Of a stretch of DNA of 54,989 nucleotides, positions 9,655 to 54,989 are shown piece after piece. Positions within the stretch are counted from its first letter, which is position 1, and the number at the start of each line of letters is the position of its first letter. Made by a program: the position numbers and the translations under genes. Source of the DNA: a virus (taxonomy: Duplodnaviria > Caudoviricetes); the IMG/VR virus record IMGVR_UViG_3300030107_002762, positions 1 to 54,989 of that record. One strand, written 5' to 3'. Under the pieces are notes generated by a model that was given only the letters and a program-made list of their open reading frames with translations, was not told the origin of the DNA and did not search any database.

Positions 9655-11412
9655 TCATACTGTATATATTTTTAAAGGTTTTTCTTTGCCTTTTACTTTT
9701 ATAGGTTTTAATGGTTTTAAATAATAACCACATTTACTTTCCGTATTTTCACCTATTAAAATATCTACCCCCGCGTCTTTTGTACCTGATTCTAATCTAG
9801 CTGCAGTGTTTACCGCGTCACCAATAGCGGTATAATCAAATCGTGAGGAAGACCCCATATTACCGATTACTGCTTCTCCTGTGTTTACTCCTATGCCTAT
9901 GGCTACTGCAGGAAGTCCTTCCGCTTGGAGTTCTATATTAAGGTCAGCCATATTTTGCCAAATATCTTTAGCACAATCTACCGCTATTTGTTCATGATGT
10001 AATACGTCTAAAGGAGCATTAAATATAGCCATCATAGCGTCGCCTATGTATTTATCAACCATACCACCGTGTTTTTGCACTGCTGCTTGTTGAGCGGTAA
10101 GAGCTTTATTCATAATATAAGTTACTTTTTCTGGCGTTACAGCTTCTGATAAAGCGGTAAACCCTCGTACATCGGTAAATAAAAAAGTAGCGTATCTTTT
10201 TTCACCACCTAATTTTAATAACTCAGGATTCTTTTGTAGCTGTTTTACTTGTCTAGGGTCTAAGTAATGTTCGAATTGTTTTTTAATTTCTAAACGTAAT
10301 TTATATTGTTCACGAAAACGTAAATAAAAAGCAATCGTTCCTGTTATAAATTCACTAATTAAAGTCCACGTTGTATCTATTAATAATCCTTGTTGTATAG
10401 CATAATATCCTCCGATAGCGGTGCTAGACATAATAGCACTAAAACAAAGAACCCCTGCAGTAACGCCTAAGTTGCTTAACACAACCCAAACTAAAAGCAG
10501 GGATATAACTAATATTAAAACTTCAACGGCTAAACTGTAGTCGGGGATAAATGGACTATTTTCTACCAATATTGATTCTGCTAGTGCTGCTTGTACCTTG
10601 TGTGGTTCAAGTAATCCAACTGGGGTAGCTAACTGTGGCATTACGCCCTCAGCAGTAACTCCTACAAAAACAAATTTATTTTGTACGGCTAACTCTTGCA
10701 TATTAGTTTCTGGAGTATCTACCCAACTAACCCACTTACGTCCTAATCCGTCCGTTTTAACGGCAGGTAAACCTTTTACCCGTACTTCTTCTATACCGTT
10801 CGTATTAGTCTTAATAACGTACGTATTAGCCCCTGTTAGGGCTTTTAGTACTTCGGTACCGAAAGCGGGTAACCACCCGTTAGGCGTCTTATATAGAAGC
10901 GGTATACGTCTAACTAAGTTATCTACGTCTACGGGAGCCGTAGCTATACCTTCATTTGCTTCTAATTCAGGTATATTTCTTACCGTGCCTTGAGCTAAAT
11001 AACCACCGTTGCCTTCACCCATAATAACGGTGCCTACCGTATCTGGGTATTTACCATTAGCGTTTTCGAATAAAGCTAATACCGAAGGAGCATAACTAAG
11101 AGCTATTTTAAAATTACCGTCGCCACCAAAACGGTCTTTATGTGGAAAGCCAATAACCCAACCAACGCCTAAAGCTCCTCGGTTTAACAATTCTATTTGT
11201 AATTCTGCTAAACGTTGTCTAGGAAAAGGATAACCACCTTCATTATTAACATCTTCTTCAGTGATATTTAAGATAACAAAATTACCAGAAGGTTCAGGAG
11301 TCTTTACAAAAGTATCAAAAGTTTTTAATTTTAATATTTCTTGCGGAGCTAAACTAAAAATTAACGGTAAACTTAACACCGTTATTATTACAATAATTTT
11401 TAAATACTTCAC
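9655..11412 (-). CDS. CHASE2-domain membrane class III adenylate cyclase
   Basis: N-terminal TM, CHASE2 (VILNITEE, YPFPR, DNLVRRIPL), three TMs, catalytic FTDVRGFT, DKYIGD, YTAIGDAVNTAARLE. Confidence 0.92.
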   Translation of the reverse strand: MKYLKIIVIITVLSLPLIFSLAPQEILKLKTFDTFVKTPEPSGNFVILNITEEDVNNEGGYPFPRQRLAELQIELLNRGALGVGWVIGFPHKDRFGGDGNFKIALSYAPSVLALFENANGKYPDTVGTVIMGEGNGGYLAQGTVRNIPELEANEGIATAPVDVDNLVRRIPLLYKTPNGWLPAFGTEVLKALTGANTYVIKTNTNGIEEVRVKGLPAVKTDGLGRKWVSWVDTPETNMQELAVQNKFVFVGVTAEGVMPQLATPVGLLEPHKVQAALAESILVENSPFIPDYSLAVEVLILVISLLLVWVVLSNLGVTAGVLCFSAIMSSTAIGGYYAIQQGLLIDTTWTLISEFITGTIAFYLRFREQYKLRLEIKKQFEHYLDPRQVKQLQKNPELLKLGGEKRYATFLFTDVRGFTALSEAVTPEKVTYIMNKALTAQQAAVQKHGGMVDKYIGDAMMAIFNAPLDVLHHEQIAVDCAKDIWQNMADLNIELQAEGLPAVAIGIGVNTGEAVIGNMGSSSRFDYTAIGDAVNTAARLESGTKDAGVDILIGENTESKCGYYLKPLKPIKVKGKEKPLKIYTV

Positions 11413-12563
11413 CCTGAACCTTGTCTAATATTTATTGTAGAATCACTACCACCGTTTACTTTAATTTCATTCATCACGCCGTCTTGTTCTAAAATTACAG
11501 TGTAGCTATTGTCGCTATCTATATTTAATACTGCACCTTGTCCTACAGTTCTATTTAAACTTATTTGTGCTCCAGAAACTACTGTGGTTATCTGAGTTTT
11601 AGTGTCTTGACCAATGTTAGTGCCTCGAATAGTAGAAGAAATAGCTGATTGATCAAGCTGATCTTCGTCTGTTAAACTGTCTAGTTCATTTAAAATATTT
11701 AATAAATCTTCTAAAAAATTTACATTTAACGCATCGTAATCTAATTCAGTAAAATCTAACTGTTCTTCTTCTTTTAAGTTTTCTTCTGCTAAATAATCAA
11801 AATCTAATTCATTAAAATCTAAAATAGGGTCTTTTATTTCTTGTGTTTCTTCTTCTTCTGTTTTTATTACTTTTTTAGGCGGTGTAACAATTAACATATT
11901 ATCAATAAAATCTAATGACAAATCTAATAATACAGGAGGACTAGGCGTTGCTTCTAAGGTAGTTGTCGTTGTGGCTTGATATGCTTGGTTTAAAATTACC
12001 TCACCCATAGCCGTACTAACTACTATTTCTCCAGAAGGGTTACCAAATTCATCAGGTAATAAAATAAATAAACTTTCACCCGTGTCGGGTTCTACTGTAA
12101 TAGTAAAATCTGTTCCTCTAATCGCTACCGTAGCTGAGTCCGTACGAATAGTCATATTTTCTTTTGGAATACTACTAAATTTAGCAGTTACAAAACGAGC
12201 CGTGCCTTTAGCAAAAGATAACGCTAACTTACTTTTTGTTGGGTTAGGGTCGTAAATGTATTCGTCAATAATTAAAGTAGAATGTTCTGTTAGTTTAACT
12301 TTACTATCGTCAGCAAAACGTAAACCTAATCTACCTTGTTCAGTTTTAGCCTCATCGTTAGATTGTAAATTAAAATCAATTACTGCTTTATAATCTTTAT
12401 CACGGCTTATTTGTCCGTAACCTGAGACTTCTTCTACAGAGCCGATGTTAAGGGCAACTGGTTGCTGTGCCTTGATCGTTTTGGATAATACAGAAAGTAC
12501 CATTAGAACCATTAGAAATGACACGTAACCAGTCGTTATCGAGTGTTGACGCCTGTGTAACAT
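11409..12563 (-). CDS. FecR-domain periplasmic protein with acidic linker and curlin-like C-terminus
   Basis: Signal peptide; FADDSKVKL and VAIRGTDF FecR motifs; true start probably near 12513. Confidence 0.8.
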   Translation of the reverse strand: MLHRRQHSITTGYVSFLMVLMVLSVLSKTIKAQQPVALNIGSVEEVSGYGQISRDKDYKAVIDFNLQSNDEAKTEQGRLGLRFADDSKVKLTEHSTLIIDEYIYDPNPTKSKLALSFAKGTARFVTAKFSSIPKENMTIRTDSATVAIRGTDFTITVEPDTGESLFILLPDEFGNPSGEIVVSTAMGEVILNQAYQATTTTTLEATPSPPVLLDLSLDFIDNMLIVTPPKKVIKTEEEETQEIKDPILDFNELDFDYLAEENLKEEEQLDFTELDYDALNVNFLEDLLNILNELDSLTDEDQLDQSAISSTIRGTNIGQDTKTQITTVVSGAQISLNRTVGQGAVLNIDSDNSYTVILEQDGVMNEIKVNGGSDSTINIRQGSG

Positions 12564-13158
12564 TTATAGTTCTAGAACCTCCTGTGTGGTTTAAATGAAA
12601 AAAGCCTCCTTGAAAACCATCACCGTTATAGTTAATGGTGTTATCAGAACCATCAACATTCATATAGTTAGTAGCCAAGTCTACATCGATATCGGAATCA
12701 ATAGTATTGTTTGAACCGTTGATGATCCAATCTAAATCTAACGTAGTAGCTAATGCTGCGGTGCCTTGGTCTAAAGACATATCGTTAGCTGTTCCTGTTA
12801 CTGAAATATTTACGTTAGAGCCGTCAGTGGAATAAGTGTTAGTAGGGTCTGTTTGAATATCGAAAATATTACTAGAACCAGAAAATTCAAAAAACCCAAT
12901 ATAATTATCAGCGTTAATATCTCCTTTAAATAAATTACTAGAACCTATCTGATTGATATCTAAGGTCATGTTAGTTCCGTCTAAATCTAGTGGCGTCATG
13001 CTCCCTGAAGTAGATAAAACTCCTCCAATTAAGTTACCTGAACCTAGCTGTTCTATATCTGCGTTTAGGGTTGCTCCTGATTGATCAATAGATATTTCGT
13101 TATCCGCAGACCATAAAAAATTAGATAAAACTATTAACAAAAATAATTGTTTTTTCAT
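12448..13158 (-). CDS. Secreted curlin-like (CsgA/CsgB-like) beta-solenoid protein
   Basis: MKK signal peptide; repeats NEISIDQSG, DIEQLGSGN, DINQIGSSN; directly after csgG. Confidence 0.65.
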   Translation of the reverse strand: MKKQLFLLIVLSNFLWSADNEISIDQSGATLNADIEQLGSGNLIGGVLSTSGSMTPLDLDGTNMTLDINQIGSSNLFKGDINADNYIGFFEFSGSSNIFDIQTDPTNTYSTDGSNVNISVTGTANDMSLDQGTAALATTLDLDWIINGSNNTIDSDIDVDLATNYMNVDGSDNTINYNGDGFQGGFFHLNHTGGSRTINVTQASTLDNDWLRVISNGSNGTFCIIQNDQGTATSCP

Positions 13159-14000
13159 TGTTTTAAGCTCCAATATTCGTATTGTATTCCTTCCATGATG
13201 GTTTTGTAAACTGCTGTTTCTATGGCTGCTTGTAGGGCTATAGTTACTCCTTCGTTCTCTACGTTACCGTTTTCTATCTCTATTAACCTAGTATTATCTT
13301 TTACGAAACGGAAAACATCTTGATTAATACCTACGCTTAAAATAGTTTTAGTAACAGTAACTTCTGTTAAAATACGCCCCGTAAGCACAGAAACCGTGCG
13401 TAAACTTATTGTAACTGTATCTTGTCGGTATTCTTTACTTACCCCAATACCTAATATTCTACCTCCCGAACCACCTGAACGAGTATTAGTTTCATAACCA
13501 ACTACCGCACCTTCCATTAAAATACCTGCAAATAATAAAGGTTTTAATTTTTGTTCTTCATCAAAGTCTTTTCGTGTACTACGAATTAATTGTCGTTCTT
13601 TAGTTAAGTTATCTAAACCAACGCGTTCTACTACTTCGAAAAAATTACCTTTGCTAGTGTCTTTTAATGCTTTTATTAATAATGCGTAAGGGGCTTGAGT
13701 AACTGCGGTGCTAAAAGAAGCATAAGTACTATTACTTCTACGTTGTCCTGTTTGATCAGTAAACGCGGTAGGATATACCGCTACCACGGGTTTTATATTT
13801 GGAATTCCTAAATTACTTAAGTTTTCATTAATGACTTCAGAAACCTCTGCATATCTTGAAGGTTCTAAATTTTCTATCGCTTGTTCTGTTTTTAATAAAG
13901 CACAACTAGAAAGTAAAACTATCAAGAGGAAAAGTAATGATCGTTTCGTTGCCGTCAGCATCAGTGATAGTAAGTGTAATCGTAGTATCATCAGCAACAT
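13155..14000 (-). CDS. csgG: Curli secretion channel CsgG-like outer-membrane lipoprotein
   Basis: Lipobox LSSC; DQTGQ, FSTAVTQ, VVERVGLDNLTKERQLIR; true start is downstream of the annotated one. Confidence 0.9.
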   Translation of the reverse strand: MLLMILRLHLLSLMLTATKRSLLFLLIVLLSSCALLKTEQAIENLEPSRYAEVSEVINENLSNLGIPNIKPVVAVYPTAFTDQTGQRRSNSTYASFSTAVTQAPYALLIKALKDTSKGNFFEVVERVGLDNLTKERQLIRSTRKDFDEEQKLKPLLFAGILMEGAVVGYETNTRSGGSGGRILGIGVSKEYRQDTVTISLRTVSVLTGRILTEVTVTKTILSVGINQDVFRFVKDNTRLIEIENGNVENEGVTIALQAAIETAVYKTIMEGIQYEYWSLKQ

Positions 14001-14403
14001 AGTCTATCCTGTTTCCCTCTAATTCAATAGTACCTGCGTTAGAAGCAGTCTCTCCGAATAAATTATCTACTAATTGTTGTGATAGCTTAGCATAAACTCT
14101 AGATTCTAAATTTCTAATAAAACGGGCTAACGTGCTGTTATTTTTATCTCTTTCTGCTTCATCTGCGGCAGCTTTTAAAGCATCTGAAATACTTTGTTTT
14201 CTTGTTTTTTCTTGATTTTCTATTGTTAAATAATGTGCTGAAGTTCCTACTCCTGAAAAACTAGGGCTTTTAAAAGTAAACTTCATTTCGTCTGCTTGGG
14301 TAACAGATGAATAAACTATAGCAAAAACTATAAAAACAATACCCGTGTACGCGAAAATATTTTCAATCGCTATTTCGTTCTTTGTTTTCTTTCGTTTCCT
14401 CAT
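13906..14403 (-). CDS. csgF: Curli assembly protein CsgF-like
   Basis: Signal/TM segment then FKSPSFSG; FIRNLESRVYAKLSQQLVDNLFG; adjacent to csgG. Confidence 0.8.
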   Translation of the reverse strand: MRKRKKTKNEIAIENIFAYTGIVFIVFAIVYSSVTQADEMKFTFKSPSFSGVGTSAHYLTIENQEKTRKQSISDALKAAADEAERDKNNSTLARFIRNLESRVYAKLSQQLVDNLFGETASNAGTIELEGNRIDYVADDTTITLTITDADGNETIITFPLDSFTF

Positions 14404-47937: not shown

Positions 47938-48273
47938 TTATAGCCATCCCGTATGCGGTGCTACTTTTTGATTATCGGAAGCTAATTTAACATCAACTTC
48001 TTTTAACCACTCATCGTAAGCCCTTTTAGTTTGTTCATTATCTTGGTAGAGTTGCATAAACTCTGTCCATTTACTACGAGCGATTTGTACGCCCCTATAA
48101 TAATCACCGTCACCTAACTTACAACGGGTTACTATTTGCCAAACTCTTTGTTTAGTTAAATCGTATTTCTCGCCTAATTCTGCTAACGTTTCTTCTGCAG
48201 TTTTCCAATCATCATAGATTGCTCGATAACGTTTAGCGTTTTGTTCTGCTTTATATGTATCTATACCTCTCAT
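47938..48273 (-). CDS. HTH DNA-binding protein (sigma70 region 4-like)
   Basis: TLAELGEKYDLTKQRVWQIV. Confidence 0.65.
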   Translation of the reverse strand: MRGIDTYKAEQNAKRYRAIYDDWKTAEETLAELGEKYDLTKQRVWQIVTRCKLGDGDYYRGVQIARSKWTEFMQLYQDNEQTKRAYDEWLKEVDVKLASDNQKVAPHTGWL

Positions 48274-50129
48274 AGTATCTCCTTTGTTTCACCCCAAGAC
48301 TTACCAAGTTCTACATCTACTAACAACGGCACTGCTAATTTTACGCAGTCTTGCATTGTTTTAGAAATAAGTAGAGCTTGTTCTTGATCAACTACCGAAA
48401 CATCAACTTCATCGTGTACTTGTAAGTGTGGAACAATACCTTGTTCCCATAGACCTAACATCGCTAATTTAGTCATGTCAGCTGCTGAACCTTGAATTAA
48501 TCTATTAAGGGCTTTATATGTAAATGATCTTTTTAAATTATCTCCGTATTTTTCTTGAGCTTCTTTTAAAGGCAACGGAGTAGAGCGTTCGTATTTATCT
48601 TCCCATAAATCGAAACGACATCGTCTACCTGCAAAAGTTTTTATATATCCTCTATCCATAGCTACGCGAGTGCAATAATCTTGTAAAGCTCTAATAAAAG
48701 GTACTTTCTCATGGTATTGTAAAAATAGAGCTTCTGCTTCTAAATCATCAACACCTAGTTCTTTAATTAGTTTTTCTTTACCCATGCCATAGCTAAGTCC
48801 TAGATTTATCGTCTTAGCTTGTTTACGTGGTATTTTTGCCATATCTGCTACGATCTGATGAAAGTCAGCATTATCGTCAGTATACTGAGCTACTGCATCT
48901 TTTGCTCCTGTTAAGTTCATCTGATCAGCATAATGTACAGTGAGTCTAGGTTCTTGTTGAGAATAATCAAAAACCCCCCACTGACAACCGTCTTCAGGAA
49001 TAAATAAAGAACGAATAAGATTACCTATCTCAGGGTCACGAGCAGGTACTTGTTGTAGATTAGGATTACTATAACTAAACCGACCACTGACCGTGCCGCC
49101 ACGATCATTACGCATAGCATGAGCTTCCGCGTGTATTCTGCCATTAAAACAATGTTCTTGGATCATCTTCTCAATAAACGTTGTTCTAGCTTTATTTAGT
49201 TTTCTAGCCCTAACGATCAACTGCGGTAGTTCATGCTCATGCCCTTCTAACCAGTCTTTTTGAAAACTAGCCATACCTTTTGCAGTATGCGGATACCAAA
49301 GTTTATTTTTATCAAATATCTCTTGTAACGAAGCGTTAGCCCAAAGATTAACTTCGGCACCATACTTACGTTTTATTTCTACTTGTAACTTTTGTTCTTC
49401 GGTAGAGAGCTGTTTACTAACTTGCTCGGCTCGTTCTTCATCTATTCTAACGCCACGCCATCGCATTTCTAATAACAACGGTATTAAACGACACTCCATA
49501 GCTAATATCTTTTCTAAATCTTGAGCAACAACTTCAGCTTTTAATTTATGCCAAAGTTTTAAAGTCAACGCTGCATCTTGTTGCCCGTAAGGACCAACGT
49601 ATTTTGCAGGTAGTTTATACATCTCTGATTTAGGATTGATACCGAAAGCTAAAGCAGCATCACGTAATAACGATTCATCTTTCTTTTCGTTACAATAAAA
49701 CTCACCTAGATTATCTAACGAATAAGAATAGCGATGTTCATCAACTAAGGGTGCAGCAACTATAGTGTCTAAAATATTGCCTTTTATTTCTACGCCTTCT
49801 CGCCTTAACCAACCTACATCATAGAGTGCATTATGAAATATAACGTCTCGTTTAGTAGAGCTAAGTAGATTACGTAACCAACGTAAAACAATATCTTCAT
49901 CTAAGTTGCCACCGCCCTGATGACGGATAGGAAAATAACCTGACCACTTTTCAGTAGCTACCCCAATACCTACGATATAACCACGACTTGTAGCCCAGCC
50001 TGGACCACAAGTCAATAAGTGTGGGTCGTAAGTTTCTAAGTCTATCGCTACGGTTTCCGTTTCCGAAAACTGCGGAAACACGTCAGGTACAGACCAAGAA
50101 CTTTCGGGAGCAAAAAGTGGTTGCTGCAT
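48270..50129 (-). CDS. polA: DNA polymerase family A with 3'-5' exonuclease
   Basis: DLET, HNALYD, DYSQQEPR, KTINLGLSYG, IQGSAAD, VHDE. Confidence 0.95.
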   Translation of the reverse strand: MQQPLFAPESSWSVPDVFPQFSETETVAIDLETYDPHLLTCGPGWATSRGYIVGIGVATEKWSGYFPIRHQGGGNLDEDIVLRWLRNLLSSTKRDVIFHNALYDVGWLRREGVEIKGNILDTIVAAPLVDEHRYSYSLDNLGEFYCNEKKDESLLRDAALAFGINPKSEMYKLPAKYVGPYGQQDAALTLKLWHKLKAEVVAQDLEKILAMECRLIPLLLEMRWRGVRIDEERAEQVSKQLSTEEQKLQVEIKRKYGAEVNLWANASLQEIFDKNKLWYPHTAKGMASFQKDWLEGHEHELPQLIVRARKLNKARTTFIEKMIQEHCFNGRIHAEAHAMRNDRGGTVSGRFSYSNPNLQQVPARDPEIGNLIRSLFIPEDGCQWGVFDYSQQEPRLTVHYADQMNLTGAKDAVAQYTDDNADFHQIVADMAKIPRKQAKTINLGLSYGMGKEKLIKELGVDDLEAEALFLQYHEKVPFIRALQDYCTRVAMDRGYIKTFAGRRCRFDLWEDKYERSTPLPLKEAQEKYGDNLKRSFTYKALNRLIQGSAADMTKLAMLGLWEQGIVPHLQVHDEVDVSVVDQEQALLISKTMQDCVKLAVPLLVDVELGKSWGETKEIL

Positions 50130-50131
50130 AA

Positions 50132-50422
50132 TTACTTTTTCTTTTTAACTATCTTAGTAACTTTTGCCTTAGGTTTCTTTTTCTTTGGAGCTTTACCGCC
50201 TACCCATGCTTCGTTTACATCAGGAGTAGTAGGGTCGTCCGCTACAAATCTACCTTTTTTACCACGTGCTCGTTTTACTTCTGCTACTTCTTCTTCAAAT
50301 TTATCTAAGGTTACCGTAGCTTCCTCAATAGCTTCTGCTAAAACTTTTTCATCTTTAGTTTCTACAGGTTTTTTAGTATTATCTGTAAAAAATAAATTTC
50401 TTATCCTTTGCCATAAACTCAT
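50132..50422 (-). CDS. Hypothetical protein
   Basis: KRARGKKGRFVADDPTTPDVNEAW; K-rich tail. Confidence 0.6.
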   Translation of the reverse strand: MSLWQRIRNLFFTDNTKKPVETKDEKVLAEAIEEATVTLDKFEEEVAEVKRARGKKGRFVADDPTTPDVNEAWVGGKAPKKKKPKAKVTKIVKKKK

Positions 50423-50424
50423 AA

Positions 50425-50780
50425 TTAATCTCCTGTTGGTATGCCTTCTGAGGTTACTGCTCCAGAATAAATTGCTTTACTCTCTTGCTCAGAATCATTT
50501 ATTAAAATATCGTTTTCTACTAATAATAAATATCTACGTAAATCGCGGATATCATCTAGTAGTCCTGCTTCGCCTTTAAATGCTTCACCTGCTTCAAAGA
50601 TATCCCACCCGTGTTTTTCAGACTGGTGTTCTATCCTATCGAACTTACGTGCTAACATCATAAAAGCCCCTACGCCACCTCTACGTTTCCAAGAGTCACC
50701 GTAAGAAACTTCAGCTCTTTTTAACGCTTCTAGGTCGTTTTGGGCTATGTCTTTCATAGCTTCCCAATTACTAATCGCCA
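50425..50780 (-). CDS. Nucleotide-modification-associated, MazG-like pyrophosphatase candidate
   Basis: SYGDSWKRRGGVGAFMMLARKFDR, DDIRDLRRY; adjacent to the TS homolog. Confidence 0.6.
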
Positions 50781-50791
50781 TAATTTGCTCC

Positions 50792-51862
50792 TTAGTTGTC
50801 CGCAATTTTTAATGTGAAAGTAGTGTCTCGTTTGCGGACCCATTCGAAACACGCTTTCATCCAATCGTATGCTTTAATTTTATTAATCCAAGCATAAGAA
50901 TCCTCGTAACGTCTACGTTTATGAAAAAGATAAGCATTAACCATAGGTATTGCTATATCCCGTATAGACGGATTTTGAAAAGTTTTTATTGGTCCTATAT
51001 AGTCTTTAGTTGAGAACGTTTTACCTGTCGTTATAACATCATCAAACGCCTCAAAAAATAAATCTAATTCCCACTGGAAAGTTTTAGAATGAGTTATTAA
51101 AGGTATAAGGTCTTTTTGTTTAATATATTCATAATCGTTTTTAGTAGAACGCCAACTATAAATATCAATAACGCCTAACTCTTTACAACGCTCCCAAACA
51201 TCGTTTTGATAAACATGAAAACTATCGCTAATTTGAGTATATTCACCAACAGCTATTTCTAATCTCGAAGCAAGATATTCTTGTAACATTGACATATGTA
51301 CTGCGTTAGCACCATAAGCCCCCCAAAGCATATCGTTCGAACGATTACAAACAGTCATGTTTAGTTTTTTATCTCTAACTTTAAAATAAATATTCGTATT
51401 ACAAGGTACGTCTTTACCGTCTCTATCTAAATCTTCTTTGACGTCCCACATCTGTAATACTGCCCGTCTATCGTTAGGGTTACGTCGTAACATAGCGATA
51501 ATAATTTCTAATTGATCTTTATCAAAATAATCTCGCCAACGCCAACCGTACGCCCCCCATAGAGTCTCATTATCATCAGAAAAATCTCGCATAGAGTTTA
51601 CAAAAAAAGTTAAAGGTCTTAAATCTTTACGTCCATGTAACATCCATAGACCTTCTATAAAATGGAAAAAAGGATTAGCATCGCGTTTTTCACAAAACAA
51701 TACACGTTCTGTAGGTTTTTGATAGACCGTAGCTACTGGTTCTATCGCTTCTAATGTTAACCCGTTTCTACTTTCTTGTTCTCGATAATTAGTTTTATCT
51801 AAAAAGAAATCGACACCTAATTTAAAAGCGTCGTTTATATTTCGTGCGGTTATTACTTTCAT
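50792..51862 (-). CDS. Thymidylate synthase homolog, probable dUMP hydroxymethylase
   Basis: RRAVL, catalytic PCN, RSND...GAN, SFHVY. Confidence 0.8.
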   Translation of the reverse strand: MKVITARNINDAFKLGVDFFLDKTNYREQESRNGLTLEAIEPVATVYQKPTERVLFCEKRDANPFFHFIEGLWMLHGRKDLRPLTFFVNSMRDFSDDNETLWGAYGWRWRDYFDKDQLEIIIAMLRRNPNDRRAVLQMWDVKEDLDRDGKDVPCNTNIYFKVRDKKLNMTVCNRSNDMLWGAYGANAVHMSMLQEYLASRLEIAVGEYTQISDSFHVYQNDVWERCKELGVIDIYSWRSTKNDYEYIKQKDLIPLITHSKTFQWELDLFFEAFDDVITTGKTFSTKDYIGPIKTFQNPSIRDIAIPMVNAYLFHKRRRYEDSYAWINKIKAYDWMKACFEWVRKRDTTFTLKIADN

Positions 51863-52776
51863 AATTCGTATTTGCTTTTACCTGCTACTACATCTTCTAC
51901 TATAGGCAAGTCGTTTTGTTTATAGATAGAACGTGTCCTACCCTCATTTTTAAGAATACGTGAGTATTTATCAAACTCACATAAACCCCCTTCTATCTCC
52001 CTTAATTCATAGTTAACAGAGTTTCTTTTAGTAACCCAAGAATTTCTTTCGAATGCTATTTTTAACAACTCTTGCATTTCACTGTTCCAATCATGACTAC
52101 GTAAACAATAATCTAATGGTCTACCTGTCAAACGATTAAGACCTCGCATAGCTCCTGGACCTGCATTAGCCCAAGTCATAATATCATTAGCTTCATCTAA
52201 TAAATAAGTATGTCTTAAATCAGTAACAACCTCGTACGCCATAAATGGACCCATGTAAGGATAATCTCGTAAAGTTTCCCAACAAAACTCTAAAGAAGAA
52301 TTGTTTAATGCTTTTTTATTTTCTAATTTAGTTACTAAATAATCTCTGTCGTTCCACATATGACTTATACATTCAGCTACCCCTGTAACTTTATCCATAC
52401 GATTAGGGGTTTTAATAATATAAGAACCAGTAATCCATTTAGGTTGTTTTTTAATAAGTTCAATAGCTTTCTTCCTATTCCAATTAAACAATAAATCATT
52501 TTCTATTAATGTCCTTCCTGTTTCTATTAAATTAAACCACCTAAAAATTATTACTGCCATAAAAACTCTAGGGTCGTCTCGTAACGGTTCTCTAATATGT
52601 TTTTTAAGCCACCGAGTAGTCCTATCTTCTTCTCGATAAACTTGACAGAATTTAAACTCTTGTAAAATAGGATCATTAGTCCAAGGGGGCGGTAAATCAT
52701 TTTCTTTCTTTTTACGAATACTTTCCCGTTCTTCTTGCCAGTAAAAATATCTATCAAGTTCTTCTGCAATAAACAT
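51859..52776 (-). CDS. aGPT-Pplase1-type amino acid/amine:DNA transferase (HhH glycosylase fold)
   Basis: ERESIR, PPPWTNDPIL, FCQVYREEDR, FRWFN, GPFMAYEVVTDL, GPGA, EGGLCEFDKY. Confidence 0.8.
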   Translation of the reverse strand: MFIAEELDRYFYWQEERESIRKKKENDLPPPWTNDPILQEFKFCQVYREEDRTTRWLKKHIREPLRDDPRVFMAVIIFRWFNLIETGRTLIENDLLFNWNRKKAIELIKKQPKWITGSYIIKTPNRMDKVTGVAECISHMWNDRDYLVTKLENKKALNNSSLEFCWETLRDYPYMGPFMAYEVVTDLRHTYLLDEANDIMTWANAGPGAMRGLNRLTGRPLDYCLRSHDWNSEMQELLKIAFERNSWVTKRNSVNYELREIEGGLCEFDKYSRILKNEGRTRSIYKQNDLPIVEDVVAGKSKYEL

Positions 52777-53627
52777 TACTTCTTAGTTAGTCTCCAAGCA
52801 CAGTTATTAGCGTGTTCAGGATACATAGTCGCTGCTGCCATACGTAAAAACTGTTTACCGAAACGTTCACTTAACATAATCATTTGTTCGTCTGACCACT
52901 CTATTTTTAAATCACGAGTGCCATCAAACCTAGCTTTCTTTAAATTAGGCATTTGTATAAACGTACCCGTGACCGCTTCAATATTAAAGTTACGTTCTAA
53001 TTCTTCTTTTAGTTCTTCAAAGCCCCACTCATAAACGTGGTCTTCAGGTAACTTATCATTTGACCCGTCATGGTTAGGTGTAGAAACATAGCCCAGTGCG
53101 TCAGGTCGCATAACCCTAGCTACATCATCTAACCATGCGGGTACAAACTCTCTACCCATATGTTCAATAACTTCGGTAGACCAAAAGAAATCTATACTTT
53201 CATCAGGTAAATCAAACACAGGGTTTACCGTTAAATCTTGTATTCTTATTTGTCCGTTAAAGTTTTTAAACCAAGTAGATTCTTCTAACCTACCTCCTGC
53301 GTTAGACCAAAATTTATTTTCTAACTCACACGCGGGGTCAATATCGTAACCATAATAAGAACGGATAATATCAGACTTTTTAACTACGTATGCTTTATAT
53401 AAACAACGTAACGCCCAACACTCTCCACAACCAACTTCTAAAGTGTCTAAGGGTCTACCCAACACTTTAGCTTCATCTATCGCTAAACTAGCAATTTTAT
53501 CAAAACGACTCATATGAGCTAATTCATCTGGTCGCCAGTTACCTAGTACTCCTGCTGAAGCAAGGTCCATTCTAGTATTTTTACTATCGTTTTCATTGAC
53601 AGTAAGTTTCTTTCTAATTGATGACAT
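52776..53627 (-). CDS. Class I SAM-dependent methyltransferase
   Basis: LEVGCG, YDID, TEVIEHM, STPN, HVYEW. Confidence 0.85.
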   Translation of the reverse strand: MSSIRKKLTVNENDSKNTRMDLASAGVLGNWRPDELAHMSRFDKIASLAIDEAKVLGRPLDTLEVGCGECWALRCLYKAYVVKKSDIIRSYYGYDIDPACELENKFWSNAGGRLEESTWFKNFNGQIRIQDLTVNPVFDLPDESIDFFWSTEVIEHMGREFVPAWLDDVARVMRPDALGYVSTPNHDGSNDKLPEDHVYEWGFEELKEELERNFNIEAVTGTFIQMPNLKKARFDGTRDLKIEWSDEQMIMLSERFGKQFLRMAAATMYPEHANNCAWRLTKK

Positions 53628-53661: not shown

Positions 53662-53692
53662 ATTATCCTTTACTTTTATATGCAAAGTAAAG
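53662..53692 (-). promoter_or_regulatory. Promoter TTTACT-N18-GATAAT inside an inverted repeat
   Basis: CTTTACTTT-N7-AAAGTAAAG. Confidence 0.6.
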
Positions 53693-53697
53693 AACTT

Positions 53698-54989
53698 TTA
53701 TACTTGATAACAGCGTGTTGTTTTAGGTTCAATCAAATATAAATTCTCTTTCGTTCTAGTAATACCTACATAAAACACTCTGTTTTCATCATCAGGATTA
53801 CGTTGGTAGTTTTTATAAACTCGTGCCGTAATATCCGTTAATAACACTACATTAGTTGCCTCTCCGCCTTTTGCTGCATGAATAGTAGATAAACGTATAC
53901 GTGGTTCTTTTGTTATTTTTTCTCCTCTACGTAACATAGCTCGTATATAACTTATTTCTTTTACACTTAACATAGTAAAAGCATCATACCAACGACCTTC
54001 AGGTAAATCAGGAAACATATTTTTTAAATCTTGATACTGCATAGTCAAATCAGCATCAACCACTTCTAGTTTTTTACTATCTTTAATCCGCATATATTTC
54101 AAAATATTTATACACTCAACCATAGGTATTGTTCTACCTTGATTTAATCGTTCCCAATTTATTACGGCTCTGATTTTCTTTTCAGAGATACTAGGTCTAC
54201 CTTTTACTTCAAAAAACCAACCTTGGTTTCTACAATACTCGTCTACTTCTTCTAATAAATAATTAGTCCTAGCTAACACTAGCCACTCACCTTCTTCCAT
54301 ATTTACTAATTCAATAGTTGGTTCCCAACGTACGGTGCCTTGTTCTTTTCTAGGCGTCCATTCTTTATAAATTCTAGAACGTACTTGGTCGATACAACGT
54401 TTAGCTACTTCATGCACTTCTAAAGGTACGCGATATGATTGTTTTAAAACTAAAGCATTAGTAGAGTTTTTAATTAAATATTCAACATCTGCCCCTGCCC
54501 ATTTATAAATTGCTTGATCATCATCACCTGCAACATAAATACGATCAGCTTTTTCTGTTAGTTTACGTACTACCGCCCATTGTAGCGGTGATAAATCTTG
54601 AGCTTCATCTACGAACATAACATCTAATTTAGGCACATCACCACGTAATAAAAATTGTTGTAACATATCTGTATAATCAACTAATAATCTATCTTCTTTA
54701 AACAAACGTAGCCCTCTAGCGTAACGTTCTAACTCAAACCACCCTACTGCGTCTTCTACTTCGTGCCATTGTTGTTCTAACGGTATCTCTCGCATACGAG
54801 CTAAGTTTTCTATAAACGCTAAACGATCATCATGGGTCATGGCAAATAAATGTCCATCGTCTGAGTTAGTACGACCCGTTAAACGAATATTTAATTTTTC
54901 ATTTAAGTCTAATATATCTGAATGACTTATAACACTTTCTCTACTAAGCCCTAATTGTCTAAACGCTAATGAATGTAACGTTCTAAAAA
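53698..54989 (-). CDS. UvrD/Rep-like SF1 helicase, 5' truncated by window edge
   Basis: FRTLHS, VDEAQD, GDDDQAIY, QSYR, LARTN, STIHAAKGGE, YVGITR. Confidence 0.92.
   Translation of the reverse strand, partial: FRTLHSLAFRQLGLSRESVISHSDILDLNEKLNIRLTGRTNSDDGHLFAMTHDDRLAFIENLARMREIPLEQQWHEVEDAVGWFELERYARGLRLFKEDRLLVDYTDMLQQFLLRGDVPKLDVMFVDEAQDLSPLQWAVVRKLTEKADRIYVAGDDDQAIYKWAGADVEYLIKNSTNALVLKQSYRVPLEVHEVAKRCIDQVRSRIYKEWTPRKEQGTVRWEPTIELVNMEEGEWLVLARTNYLLEEVDEYCRNQGWFFEVKGRPSISEKKIRAVINWERLNQGRTIPMVECINILKYMRIKDSKKLEVVDADLTMQYQDLKNMFPDLPEGRWYDAFTMLSVKEISYIRAMLRRGEKITKEPRIRLSTIHAAKGGEATNVVLLTDITARVYKNYQRNPDDENRVFYVGITRTKENLYLIEPKTTRCYQV

Follow-up and report, generated by a model that had tools for sequence, protein, structure and literature searches.

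A phage gene cluster joining a Hen1-like methyltransferase to a hydroxymethylase-type thymidylate synthase homolog: a possible kinase-free route to 5-methoxymethyl-2'-deoxyuridine

The viral record IMGVR_UViG_3300030107_002762 of IMG/VR, analysed here over its full length of 54,989 bases (the window), carries on its minus strand a cluster encoding a class I S-adenosylmethionine (SAM) methyltransferase (MTase; 283 aa, 52776..53627), an aGPT-Pplase1 protein (Pplase1; 305 aa, 51859..52776) and a thymidylate synthase (TS) homolog (356 aa, 50792..51862). The cluster is tentatively proposed to make a modified thymidine by a short, kinase-free route, in which 5-hydroxymethyl-2'-deoxyuridine (5hmdU) would be O-methylated to 5-methoxymethyl-2'-deoxyuridine; we place this reading somewhat below an even chance. 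Judging from its signature residues and its relatedness to the enzymes of PaMx11 and PhiJL001, the TS homolog would convert deoxyuridine monophosphate (dUMP) to 5-hydroxymethyl-dUMP, and 5hmdU would then enter DNA via the family A DNA polymerase (PolA) of the phage. The MTase, a predicted Hen1-like and metal-dependent enzyme, would methylate the 5-hydroxymethyl oxygen, either in DNA or on the nucleotide, as its active-site residues and gene neighbourhoods suggest. Pplase1 perhaps flips out or activates the 5-substituted uracil for the MTase, or catalyses an additional step. In AXL3-like phages, members of the MTase family would act on 5-hydroxymethylcytosine.

The original prediction for this locus described a thymidine hypermodification cluster in which 5hmdU is incorporated into DNA, phosphorylated and then substituted, with the MTase tailoring the appended group. 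The cluster itself, built on a hydroxymethylase-type TS homolog and Pplase1 with the MTase as a conserved member, is retained; the kinase/transferase route to an appended group is abandoned, as neither the 5-hmdU DNA kinase (5-HMUDK) nor the clade-2 amino-acid:DNA transferase (ADDT) was found in the window, in its missing end or in five complete relatives. The identities proposed for the three proteins are borne out: Pfam and an inspection of the translation give a class I MTase without a DPPY/NPPY or PC motif, PF18723 recognizes Pplase1, whose GenBank homologs carry that annotation, and the TS homolog matches PF00303, with the RSND motif and the Asn at the N177-equivalent position.

The thymidylate synthase homolog and the absent kinase route

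The TS homolog matches PF00303 (E 3e-23) and phrog_5131 (E 4e-107). Its Pfam match spans profile positions 58-215 of 266 only, the C-terminal part of TS being lost, and its closest solved relative is the CMP hydroxymethylase MilA (E 7.5e-19, vs 7e-13 for the best true TS). In the numbering of E. coli ThyA (PMC13326640), C146 is the catalytic residue, N177 confers specificity for dUMP and Asp at the same position specificity for deoxycytidine monophosphate (dCMP), L143 is associated with methylation and an acidic residue there with hydroxymethylation, and replacement of D169 by Asn is associated with 5-hydroxylation. The window homolog contains KDVPC (Asp in place of L143, followed by Cys146), RSND (Asp169) and GAN (Asn177), and so bears the sequence signature of a dUMP hydroxymethylase. 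The motifs KD[VIF]PC, RSND and GA[YL]GAN are common to the window protein, seven relatives, PaMx11 gp51 and PhiJL001 gp24; identity to the two latter enzymes is 40-43%. A role as 5-hydroxy-pyrimidine synthase is rejected because Asp169 is retained. In most relatives, a 73-80-aa open reading frame (ORF) lies between the Pplase1 and TS genes (e.g., L012:11746-11967); the window and loci L003 and L021 lack it, and its sole match, to CRAL_TRIO, is weak and probably spurious.

The genes of the known hypermodification route are missing. PaMx11 has the gene order transferase, FAD lyase, acetyltransferase, kinase, Pplase1, TS; its only proteins with a tblastn partner in the window are Pplase1, TS and PolA, and the search with PaMx11 gp46-gp49 gave nothing below E 0.1. 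PF18724 (the clade-2 ADDT) and PF18748 (5-HMUDK) are absent from the window and from each of the five relatives rated 100% complete (0/5 for both models). A Walker A scan of the window returned a single chance string at the end of a 100-aa ORF. In G005, a complete relative of 64.6 kb, tblastn found neither kinase nor transferase, and Walker A strings in long ORFs are confined to the helicase and one unrelated 241-aa ORF. Pfam detects no pyridoxal phosphate (PLP), radical-SAM, FAD, acetyltransferase, glycosyltransferase or kinase family in the 61 other ORFs of the window. Tailoring enzymes of the described classes are also lacking among the cluster proteins and in the missing end of the contig, as deduced from the near-identical relative L003 (MTase 100% identical), where the kinase and the clade-2 transferase are absent as well. 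A kinase or transferase hidden elsewhere is rejected on the basis of these searches of the whole window, the missing end and the complete relatives. Judged by its predicted genes, the phage cannot run a 'phosphorylate, then substitute' route, because the 5-hmdU DNA kinase and the clade-2 transferase are both missing.

The methyltransferase family and its neighbourhoods

The 283-aa MTase, with a core at residues 53-200, matches Methyltransf_23 (E 5e-8) and Methyltransf_11 (E 1e-6); its sequence is not that of a DNA N6, N4 or C5 methyltransferase. Marine metagenomes, including Tara, contain 295 homologs at E<=1e-3 among 910 candidates; the best 120 of the 295 are 67-100% identical, and some occur on dozens of contigs of up to 64 kb. 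Among 1.84 billion sequences, the family counts 227 representatives at E<=1e-3, a number that falls to 68 at 1e-10 and to 20 at 1e-30, and the ESM-Atlas clusters nearest to the MTase are 95-100% viral. The family is small and virus-only. In IMG/VR, 125 of 130 candidate stretches encode an MTase relative, and the counts for window-type loci refer to the best 80 of these 125. Pplase1 adjoins the MTase in 80/80 loci, and the order MTase-Pplase1-TS is kept in all 76 loci that extend 2 kb or more downstream; three of the remaining four stop short of the TS gene. Identity of the MTase ranges over 64-100% across the loci, like that of PolA (62-99%), and the helicase has a similar range. As it always stands beside Pplase1, in a constant order and with an identity range like that of PolA, the MTase gene is a stable, conserved part of the module.

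In an alignment of 38 family members, the columns G66, G68, D146, E155, H156 and H197 are invariant, while E152, T183-P184-N185 and E200 are nearly so. The best match of the family profile in the PDB is Hen1 (4xrp_C, E 4.4e-9), followed by six more Hen1/HENMT1 chains (3e-8 to 1.8e-7) and plant HEN1 (3htx, 9.6e-7); the Hen1-type matches comprise human HENMT1 (4xcx, 5wy0), four Hen1 chains from Clostridium and Anabaena (Cth/Ava) and the plant enzyme. Three Hen1/HENMT1 alignments extend past the SAM-binding core through 'EVIEH' and 'STPN...DH.EW', and the four Cth/Ava chains extend to profile positions 194-195. In HEN1/HENMT1, the metal is bound by the Glu, Glu and His of an E-x-x-E-H motif and by a His that follows an Asp, and it holds and activates the ribose hydroxyls for methylation (PMC10781085). 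The window MTase matches all four ligands (E152, E155, H156 and H197), together with D196, and has STPN at 182-185.

Distant MTase homologs occur in GenBank phages, in five records that correspond to four phages. In Stenotrophomonas phage AXL3, the homolog (28% identity to the window MTase) is followed by an NTP pyrophosphatase (NTP-PPase) of the phosphoribosyl-ATP pyrophosphohydrolase (PRA-PH) type, a 327-aa 'thymidylate kinase', a TS homolog and a dCMP deaminase. The same order is found in the Manatee Spring siphovirus, and in the Manatee Spring podovirus the MTase is followed by an NTP-PPase, a plain 187-aa kinase, a 'pyrimidine hmase', a dCMP deaminase and PolA. Among the AXL3-type loci of IMG/VR, seven of the ten with room downstream have a TS homolog within 6 kb of the MTase, and the three others have one elsewhere on the contig; an eleventh locus stops 443 nt past the MTase. 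The adjacent homologs that were read, that of the podovirus and the distant ones of L104 and L107 bear the dCMP-type signature (Asp at both L143 and N177, with Asp169 kept). Pplase1 is absent from the five AXL3-type records (0/5). The MTase family thus stands beside pyrimidine hydroxymethylases in three phage lineages, dUMP-type in the window and dCMP-type in AXL3-like phages, and the common feature of all its contexts is an enzyme predicted to make a 5-hydroxymethyl pyrimidine. AXL3 DNA is reported to be cut by two of 37 restriction enzymes, both with sites of A/T only, and the 35 that fail all have G or C in their sites (PMC7504290).

The 'thymidylate kinase' gp29 of AXL3 (L083:6220-7203) and its homologs in L087, L088, L092, L094, L095 and L096 are fusions of a P-loop kinase with a C-terminal domain whose motifs (VGE..N, HPQYWxRF) resemble those of the uracil-DNA glycosylase (UDG) superfamily; the Pfam UDG match is weak (E 0.0025, L092), and the architecture recalls the fusion of a kinase with a glycosylase fold in SP10 gp186. 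On a 107-kb viral contig (L089:6712-9355), an MTase homolog is followed by a dUTPase_2-like protein, a 372-aa protein and a UDP-galactopyranose mutase, which suggests a glycosylating hypermodification cluster.

Direct O-methylation is favoured over the tailoring of an amine because the MTase family stands beside dCMP-type hydroxymethylases in genomes without a Pplase and because it has the hydroxyl-activating residues of Hen1. A broader possibility, about which we are more doubtful, is that a virus-specific, Hen1-derived MTase family moved from the ribose to the nucleobase and methylates the oxygen of 5-hydroxymethyl pyrimidines in general. If true, abundant marine phages of the window type would carry 5-methoxymethyluracil and the AXL3-like phages of soil and freshwater 5-methoxymethylcytosine, both made by a hydroxymethylase and an MTase with no kinase step; neither base is known from natural DNA.

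Several points weigh against the methoxymethyl route. Phosphoethanolamine N-methyltransferases (PEAMTs) and UbiG match the MTase profile as well as Hen1 does (5e-9 to 9e-8), so the link to Hen1 rests on the motif match beyond the SAM-binding core; the second-domain PEAMT alignments end near profile position 175, and the first-domain ones reach position 190 without the E-x-x-E-H residues. The MTase has no match in NCBIfam, a library that presumably includes a model for bacterial Hen1. Hen1 holds its metal via two adjacent ribose hydroxyls, and 5-hydroxymethyluracil offers one hydroxyl and O4. Searches recovered no usable context for intermediate MTase relatives: P0128 and P0130 gave no loci, P0147 gave one weak locus, P0135 re-found window-type contigs only, and a single metagenome scan gave one 48-residue match. 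By Pfam, neither the cluster nor the 61 further ORFs of the window include a dUTPase, dCMP deaminase, HD nucleotidase or deoxynucleoside monophosphate kinase. Being located among replication and nucleotide genes is a hint and no proof, and the role of Pplase1 is left unexplained by the proposed scheme. Lastly, a literature search for methoxymethyl pyrimidines in natural DNA returned only unrelated chemistry.

Pplase1, alternative readings and known systems

Pplase1 matches PF18723 ('HMUDK_hel') over profile positions 4-278 of 281 (E 2.4e-43) and phrog_2396 (E 2e-61), and its 305 residues contain no kinase domain and no Walker A motif. C44 and E262-G-G-L-C266-E are invariant in ten family members. 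A profile alignment puts E262 and C266 on Glu243 and Cys247 of PaMx11 gp46, although its overall match is not significant (hhalign probability 0.15%), which is a further point against the scheme; in the crystal structure of gp46, Glu243 is a metal ligand and Cys247 the nucleophile (PMC11472151). Sequence profiles found no solved structure related to Pplase1. Among ten long Pplase1 homologs, six have a second domain. These fusions (P0271-P0276) involve a TS domain (625 aa), Prim-Pol or primase-helicase proteins and a family A DNA polymerase (1391 aa). No MTase-Pplase1 fusion was seen among the ten, a weak negative, as long candidates were crowded in that search. The Glu and Cys in register and the fusions to TS, primases and PolA suggest that Pplase1 may be an active enzyme on a 5-substituted uracil, working near replication. 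Clade-1 aGPT-Pplases occur here without a kinase or a clade-2 partner, so their function becomes directly testable.

Among the alternatives, the one that survives best, though still unlikely, is that no new base is made: the TS homolog would yield only deoxythymidine monophosphate (dTMP) or 5-hydroxymethyl-dUMP, Pplase1 would be an accessory protein and the MTase would act on a small molecule or a protein. The Pplase1 fusions suit such a role in replication or in the nucleotide pool, Pfam puts the MTase in generic families only, the scores of UbiG and PEAMTs are level with those of Hen1, and the window revealed no enzyme for clearing the dTTP pool. Plain dTMP synthesis is nevertheless difficult to reconcile with the Asp in place of L143, the lost C-terminal part of TS and MilA as best match; moreover, conservation of the MTase is as strict as that of PolA, its gene invariably adjoins Pplase1, and its family is virus-restricted and repeatedly linked to hydroxymethylases.

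An improbable alternative follows the original prediction in letting the MTase act on an appended group. Pplase1 would substitute unphosphorylated 5hmdU in DNA with an amine, an amino acid or another nucleophile, and the MTase would then methylate the appended N, O or carboxyl; one possible product would be a DNA counterpart of 5-methylaminomethyluridine (mnm5U) of tRNA, and MnmC also has a methyltransferase half. Lee et al. likened the chemistry of PaMx11 to that of MnmEG/MnmC (PMC8989533), and other authors point to phages that have an aGPT-Pplase1 gene but in which no kinase is detected (PMC13697223). Pplase1 may be an active transferase, given the register of E262-x3-C266 with the gp46 residues, and its gene is translationally coupled to that of the MTase and adjacent to it in every one of the 80 loci. 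The scheme has no kinase to provide a leaving group and no clade-2 transferase; in the reconstitution of the M6 pathway in vitro, the kinase and the transferase sufficed to form the glycinyl intermediate, and gp55, a clade-1 homolog, was dispensable for group transfer (PMC8989533). The MTase family also accompanies hydroxymethylases in the genomes without a Pplase, and its conserved residues are of the hydroxyl-activating type, not those of the matched N-methyltransferases.

A role in RNA methylation is likewise improbable. The MTase would be a true Hen1-type RNA 3'-terminal 2'-O-methyltransferase that, for example, shields tRNA or small RNA from host nucleases; the operon would merely be shared, and the DNA would contain plain 5hmdU or the product of Pplase1. 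By profile and motifs, its nearest solved relatives are indeed RNA 3'-end 2'-O-methyltransferases, and the window MTase shares with Hen1/HENMT1 the class I fold, the aligned E-x-x-E-H and D-H metal ligands and the TPN motif. It differs from them in lacking a Pnkp partner, an RNA-binding domain and an NCBIfam match: the 61 ORFs and the cluster include no Pnkp, RNA ligase or other partner in RNA repair, and no additional RNA-binding domain was found in the MTase. Hen1 and HENMT1 act on ribose, whereas the context in the window is DNA-precursor metabolism and the proposed substrate is the hydroxymethyl group of a base. In three unrelated lineages, the MTase gene has stayed next to that of a pyrimidine hydroxymethylase, a link that nothing would explain if the enzyme acted on RNA.

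The proposed methoxymethyl route has both likenesses to and differences from described phage systems. In M6, PaMx11 and ViI (PMC5889632, PMC8989533), as in the window, 5hmdU is the expected starting base, and the TS homolog, Pplase1 and PolA are ordered as in PaMx11 gp50-gp51...gp55, at about 40% identity. The window differs from those phages in lacking 5-HMUDK, the clade-2 transferase and any tailoring gene of the PLP, radical-SAM, FAD or acetyltransferase classes; comparison of kinase-Pplase1-TS in PaMx11 with MTase-Pplase1-TS in the window shows the MTase gene in the place of the kinase gene. In T4-type phages, with 5-hydroxymethylcytosine and glucosyltransferases, and in PhiJL001, with a glucosyltransferase in the same Pplase1-TS block, a hydroxyl supplied by a hydroxymethylase is capped by a second enzyme, as proposed here; the cap is a sugar there and would be a methyl from SAM in the window. 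AXL3 (gp27-gp31; PMC7504290), with its restriction-resistant DNA, has the MTase homolog beside a TS homolog as in the window, but the TS homolog is dCMP-type (N177 replaced by Asp), the partners are an NTP-PPase and the kinase/UDG-like fusion, and Pplase1 is lacking.

The pair of TS and Pplase1 in such marine phages is already published (PMC9599517, 2022): as 'partner genes' near PolA, TS and aG/PT-PPlase1 were described in uncultured HTVC023P-type marine podophages. The main text of that paper treats the pair as M6-like hypermodification without remarking on the missing kinase and transferase, and the word 'methyltransferase' does not occur in it. In PMC8989533, the mentions of methyltransferases in the main text concern other enzymes. 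Among the papers listed by a literature search on Hen1 and phage hydroxymethylases, none contains 'Hen1'. The main texts, with supplements outside the search, appear to contain no report of the link to the MTase, of its Hen1-like site or of its recurrence next to hydroxymethylases.

To our knowledge, the described hypermodifications of thymidine derived from 5hmdU all proceed via a phosphorylated intermediate or are glycosylations. If true, disguising DNA by way of a methyl ether would be both novel and highly economical, and an O-methyltransferase for a base hydroxyl would be a new enzyme activity for the DNA-modification toolbox. As the MTase family is common in ocean viromes, the methoxymethyl base could be widespread in marine viral DNA, where it might influence restriction, the signal in sequencing and surveys of nucleosides. 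The proposal also offers a concrete hypothesis for AXL3, a cultured phage whose resistance to restriction has had no explanation.

Cluster organization and genome context

The cluster is a coupled minus-strand operon with its ORFs at the predicted places. Stop and start codons overlap at the MTase/Pplase1 junction (TAATG) and at the Pplase1/TS junction (ATGA), and 2-nt spacers separate the genes farther downstream. The TS gene is followed by a small conserved protein (50425..50781), a 96-aa protein (50132..50422), acidic in its N-terminal part, Lys-rich in its tail and conserved in relatives, and PolA (619 aa with a 3'-5' exonuclease domain by Pfam, 48270..50129), all on the minus strand. PolA does lie downstream of the cluster as predicted, with the 96-aa ORF, which had been left out, in between. 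Upstream of the MTase, a UvrD-like SF1 helicase (53698..54987, minus strand; Pfam UvrD-helicase/UvrD_C, phrog_1967) has lost its 5' end at the contig end; its complete form in relatives has 498 aa. The original prediction placed one promoter ahead of the cluster. A promoter-like site, TTTACT-18-GATAAT (9/12 match; 53662..53691, minus strand), does occur in the 70-nt gap before the MTase gene, with an AAAGGAG ribosome-binding site downstream of it. The region contains 21 such 9/12 sites, vs 26.6 expected by chance from shuffled sequence; as they are no commoner than in shuffled sequence, this one is merely compatible with a promoter. In some relatives (L017:9516-10001; also L024, L026 and L074), a gene for a T4 DenV-like pyrimidine-dimer DNA glycosylase (Pyr_excise, phrog_624) lies between the helicase and the MTase; it is not present in the window.

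The small conserved protein probably starts at ATG 50781, preceded by GGAG, which gives 118 aa (126 aa from TTG 50805). Its identification as a MazG-like NTP pyrophosphohydrolase is rejected: the 118/126-aa ORF has no Pfam, PHROG or NCBIfam match, and hhalign against seven phage NTP-PPases gave a probability of 0.6%. A Pfam scan of ten family members at E up to 10 returned no match, and comparison with the PDB no useful one. The ORF lies beside a viral ESM-Atlas cluster of which 11% of the members carry DUF1599, a domain named 'nucleotide modification associated domain 1' (Nmad1) in one preprint. The protein is possibly DUF1599/Nmad1-like by sequence; this link remains a lead because the PF07659 (DUF1599) model has no match anywhere in the window. 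Of the aGPT-Pplase and Nmad families proposed for a profile search, PF18723 was matched in the window, and PF18724 and PF07659 were not.

The window is an entire IMG/VR viral record, linear and 89% complete by CheckV, with a GC content of about 36% and nearly all genes on the minus strand. Megablast of 6.7 kb from the cluster region found no match in GenBank phages. The Pfam scan of the 61 further ORFs recovered, among others, capsid, terminase, adaptor and lysozyme genes. A curli/type VIII secretion system (T8SS) block lies within the phage at 9655-14403 (minus strand) and comprises, by Pfam, a CHASE2 and adenylate cyclase gene (9655..11412), a FecR gene (11409..12563), a curlin repeat gene (12448..13173), a CsgG gene (13155..14000) and a CsgF gene (13906..14403). 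It agrees with the block reported for HTVC023P-type pelagiphages, in which curli/T8SS genes with FecR and adenylate cyclase accompany TS and Pplase1 near PolA (PMC9599517). As all these components are found in the window, we take it, by gene content alone, as a phage of the HTVC023P-type kind.

The sole sizeable plus-strand gene of the window, opposed to the rest of the genome, is a SNF2-type helicase fragment truncated at the contig start (3-1157; phrog_62). The part beyond window position 54989 was read in L003 (4655-8437). Ahead of the full helicase, relatives have genes like Pam3 gp32, gp33 and gp34, an archaeo-eukaryotic primase (AEP; 507 aa) and, immediately before the helicase, an AlkB-like 2-oxoglutarate (2OG)-Fe(II) oxygenase (193 aa).

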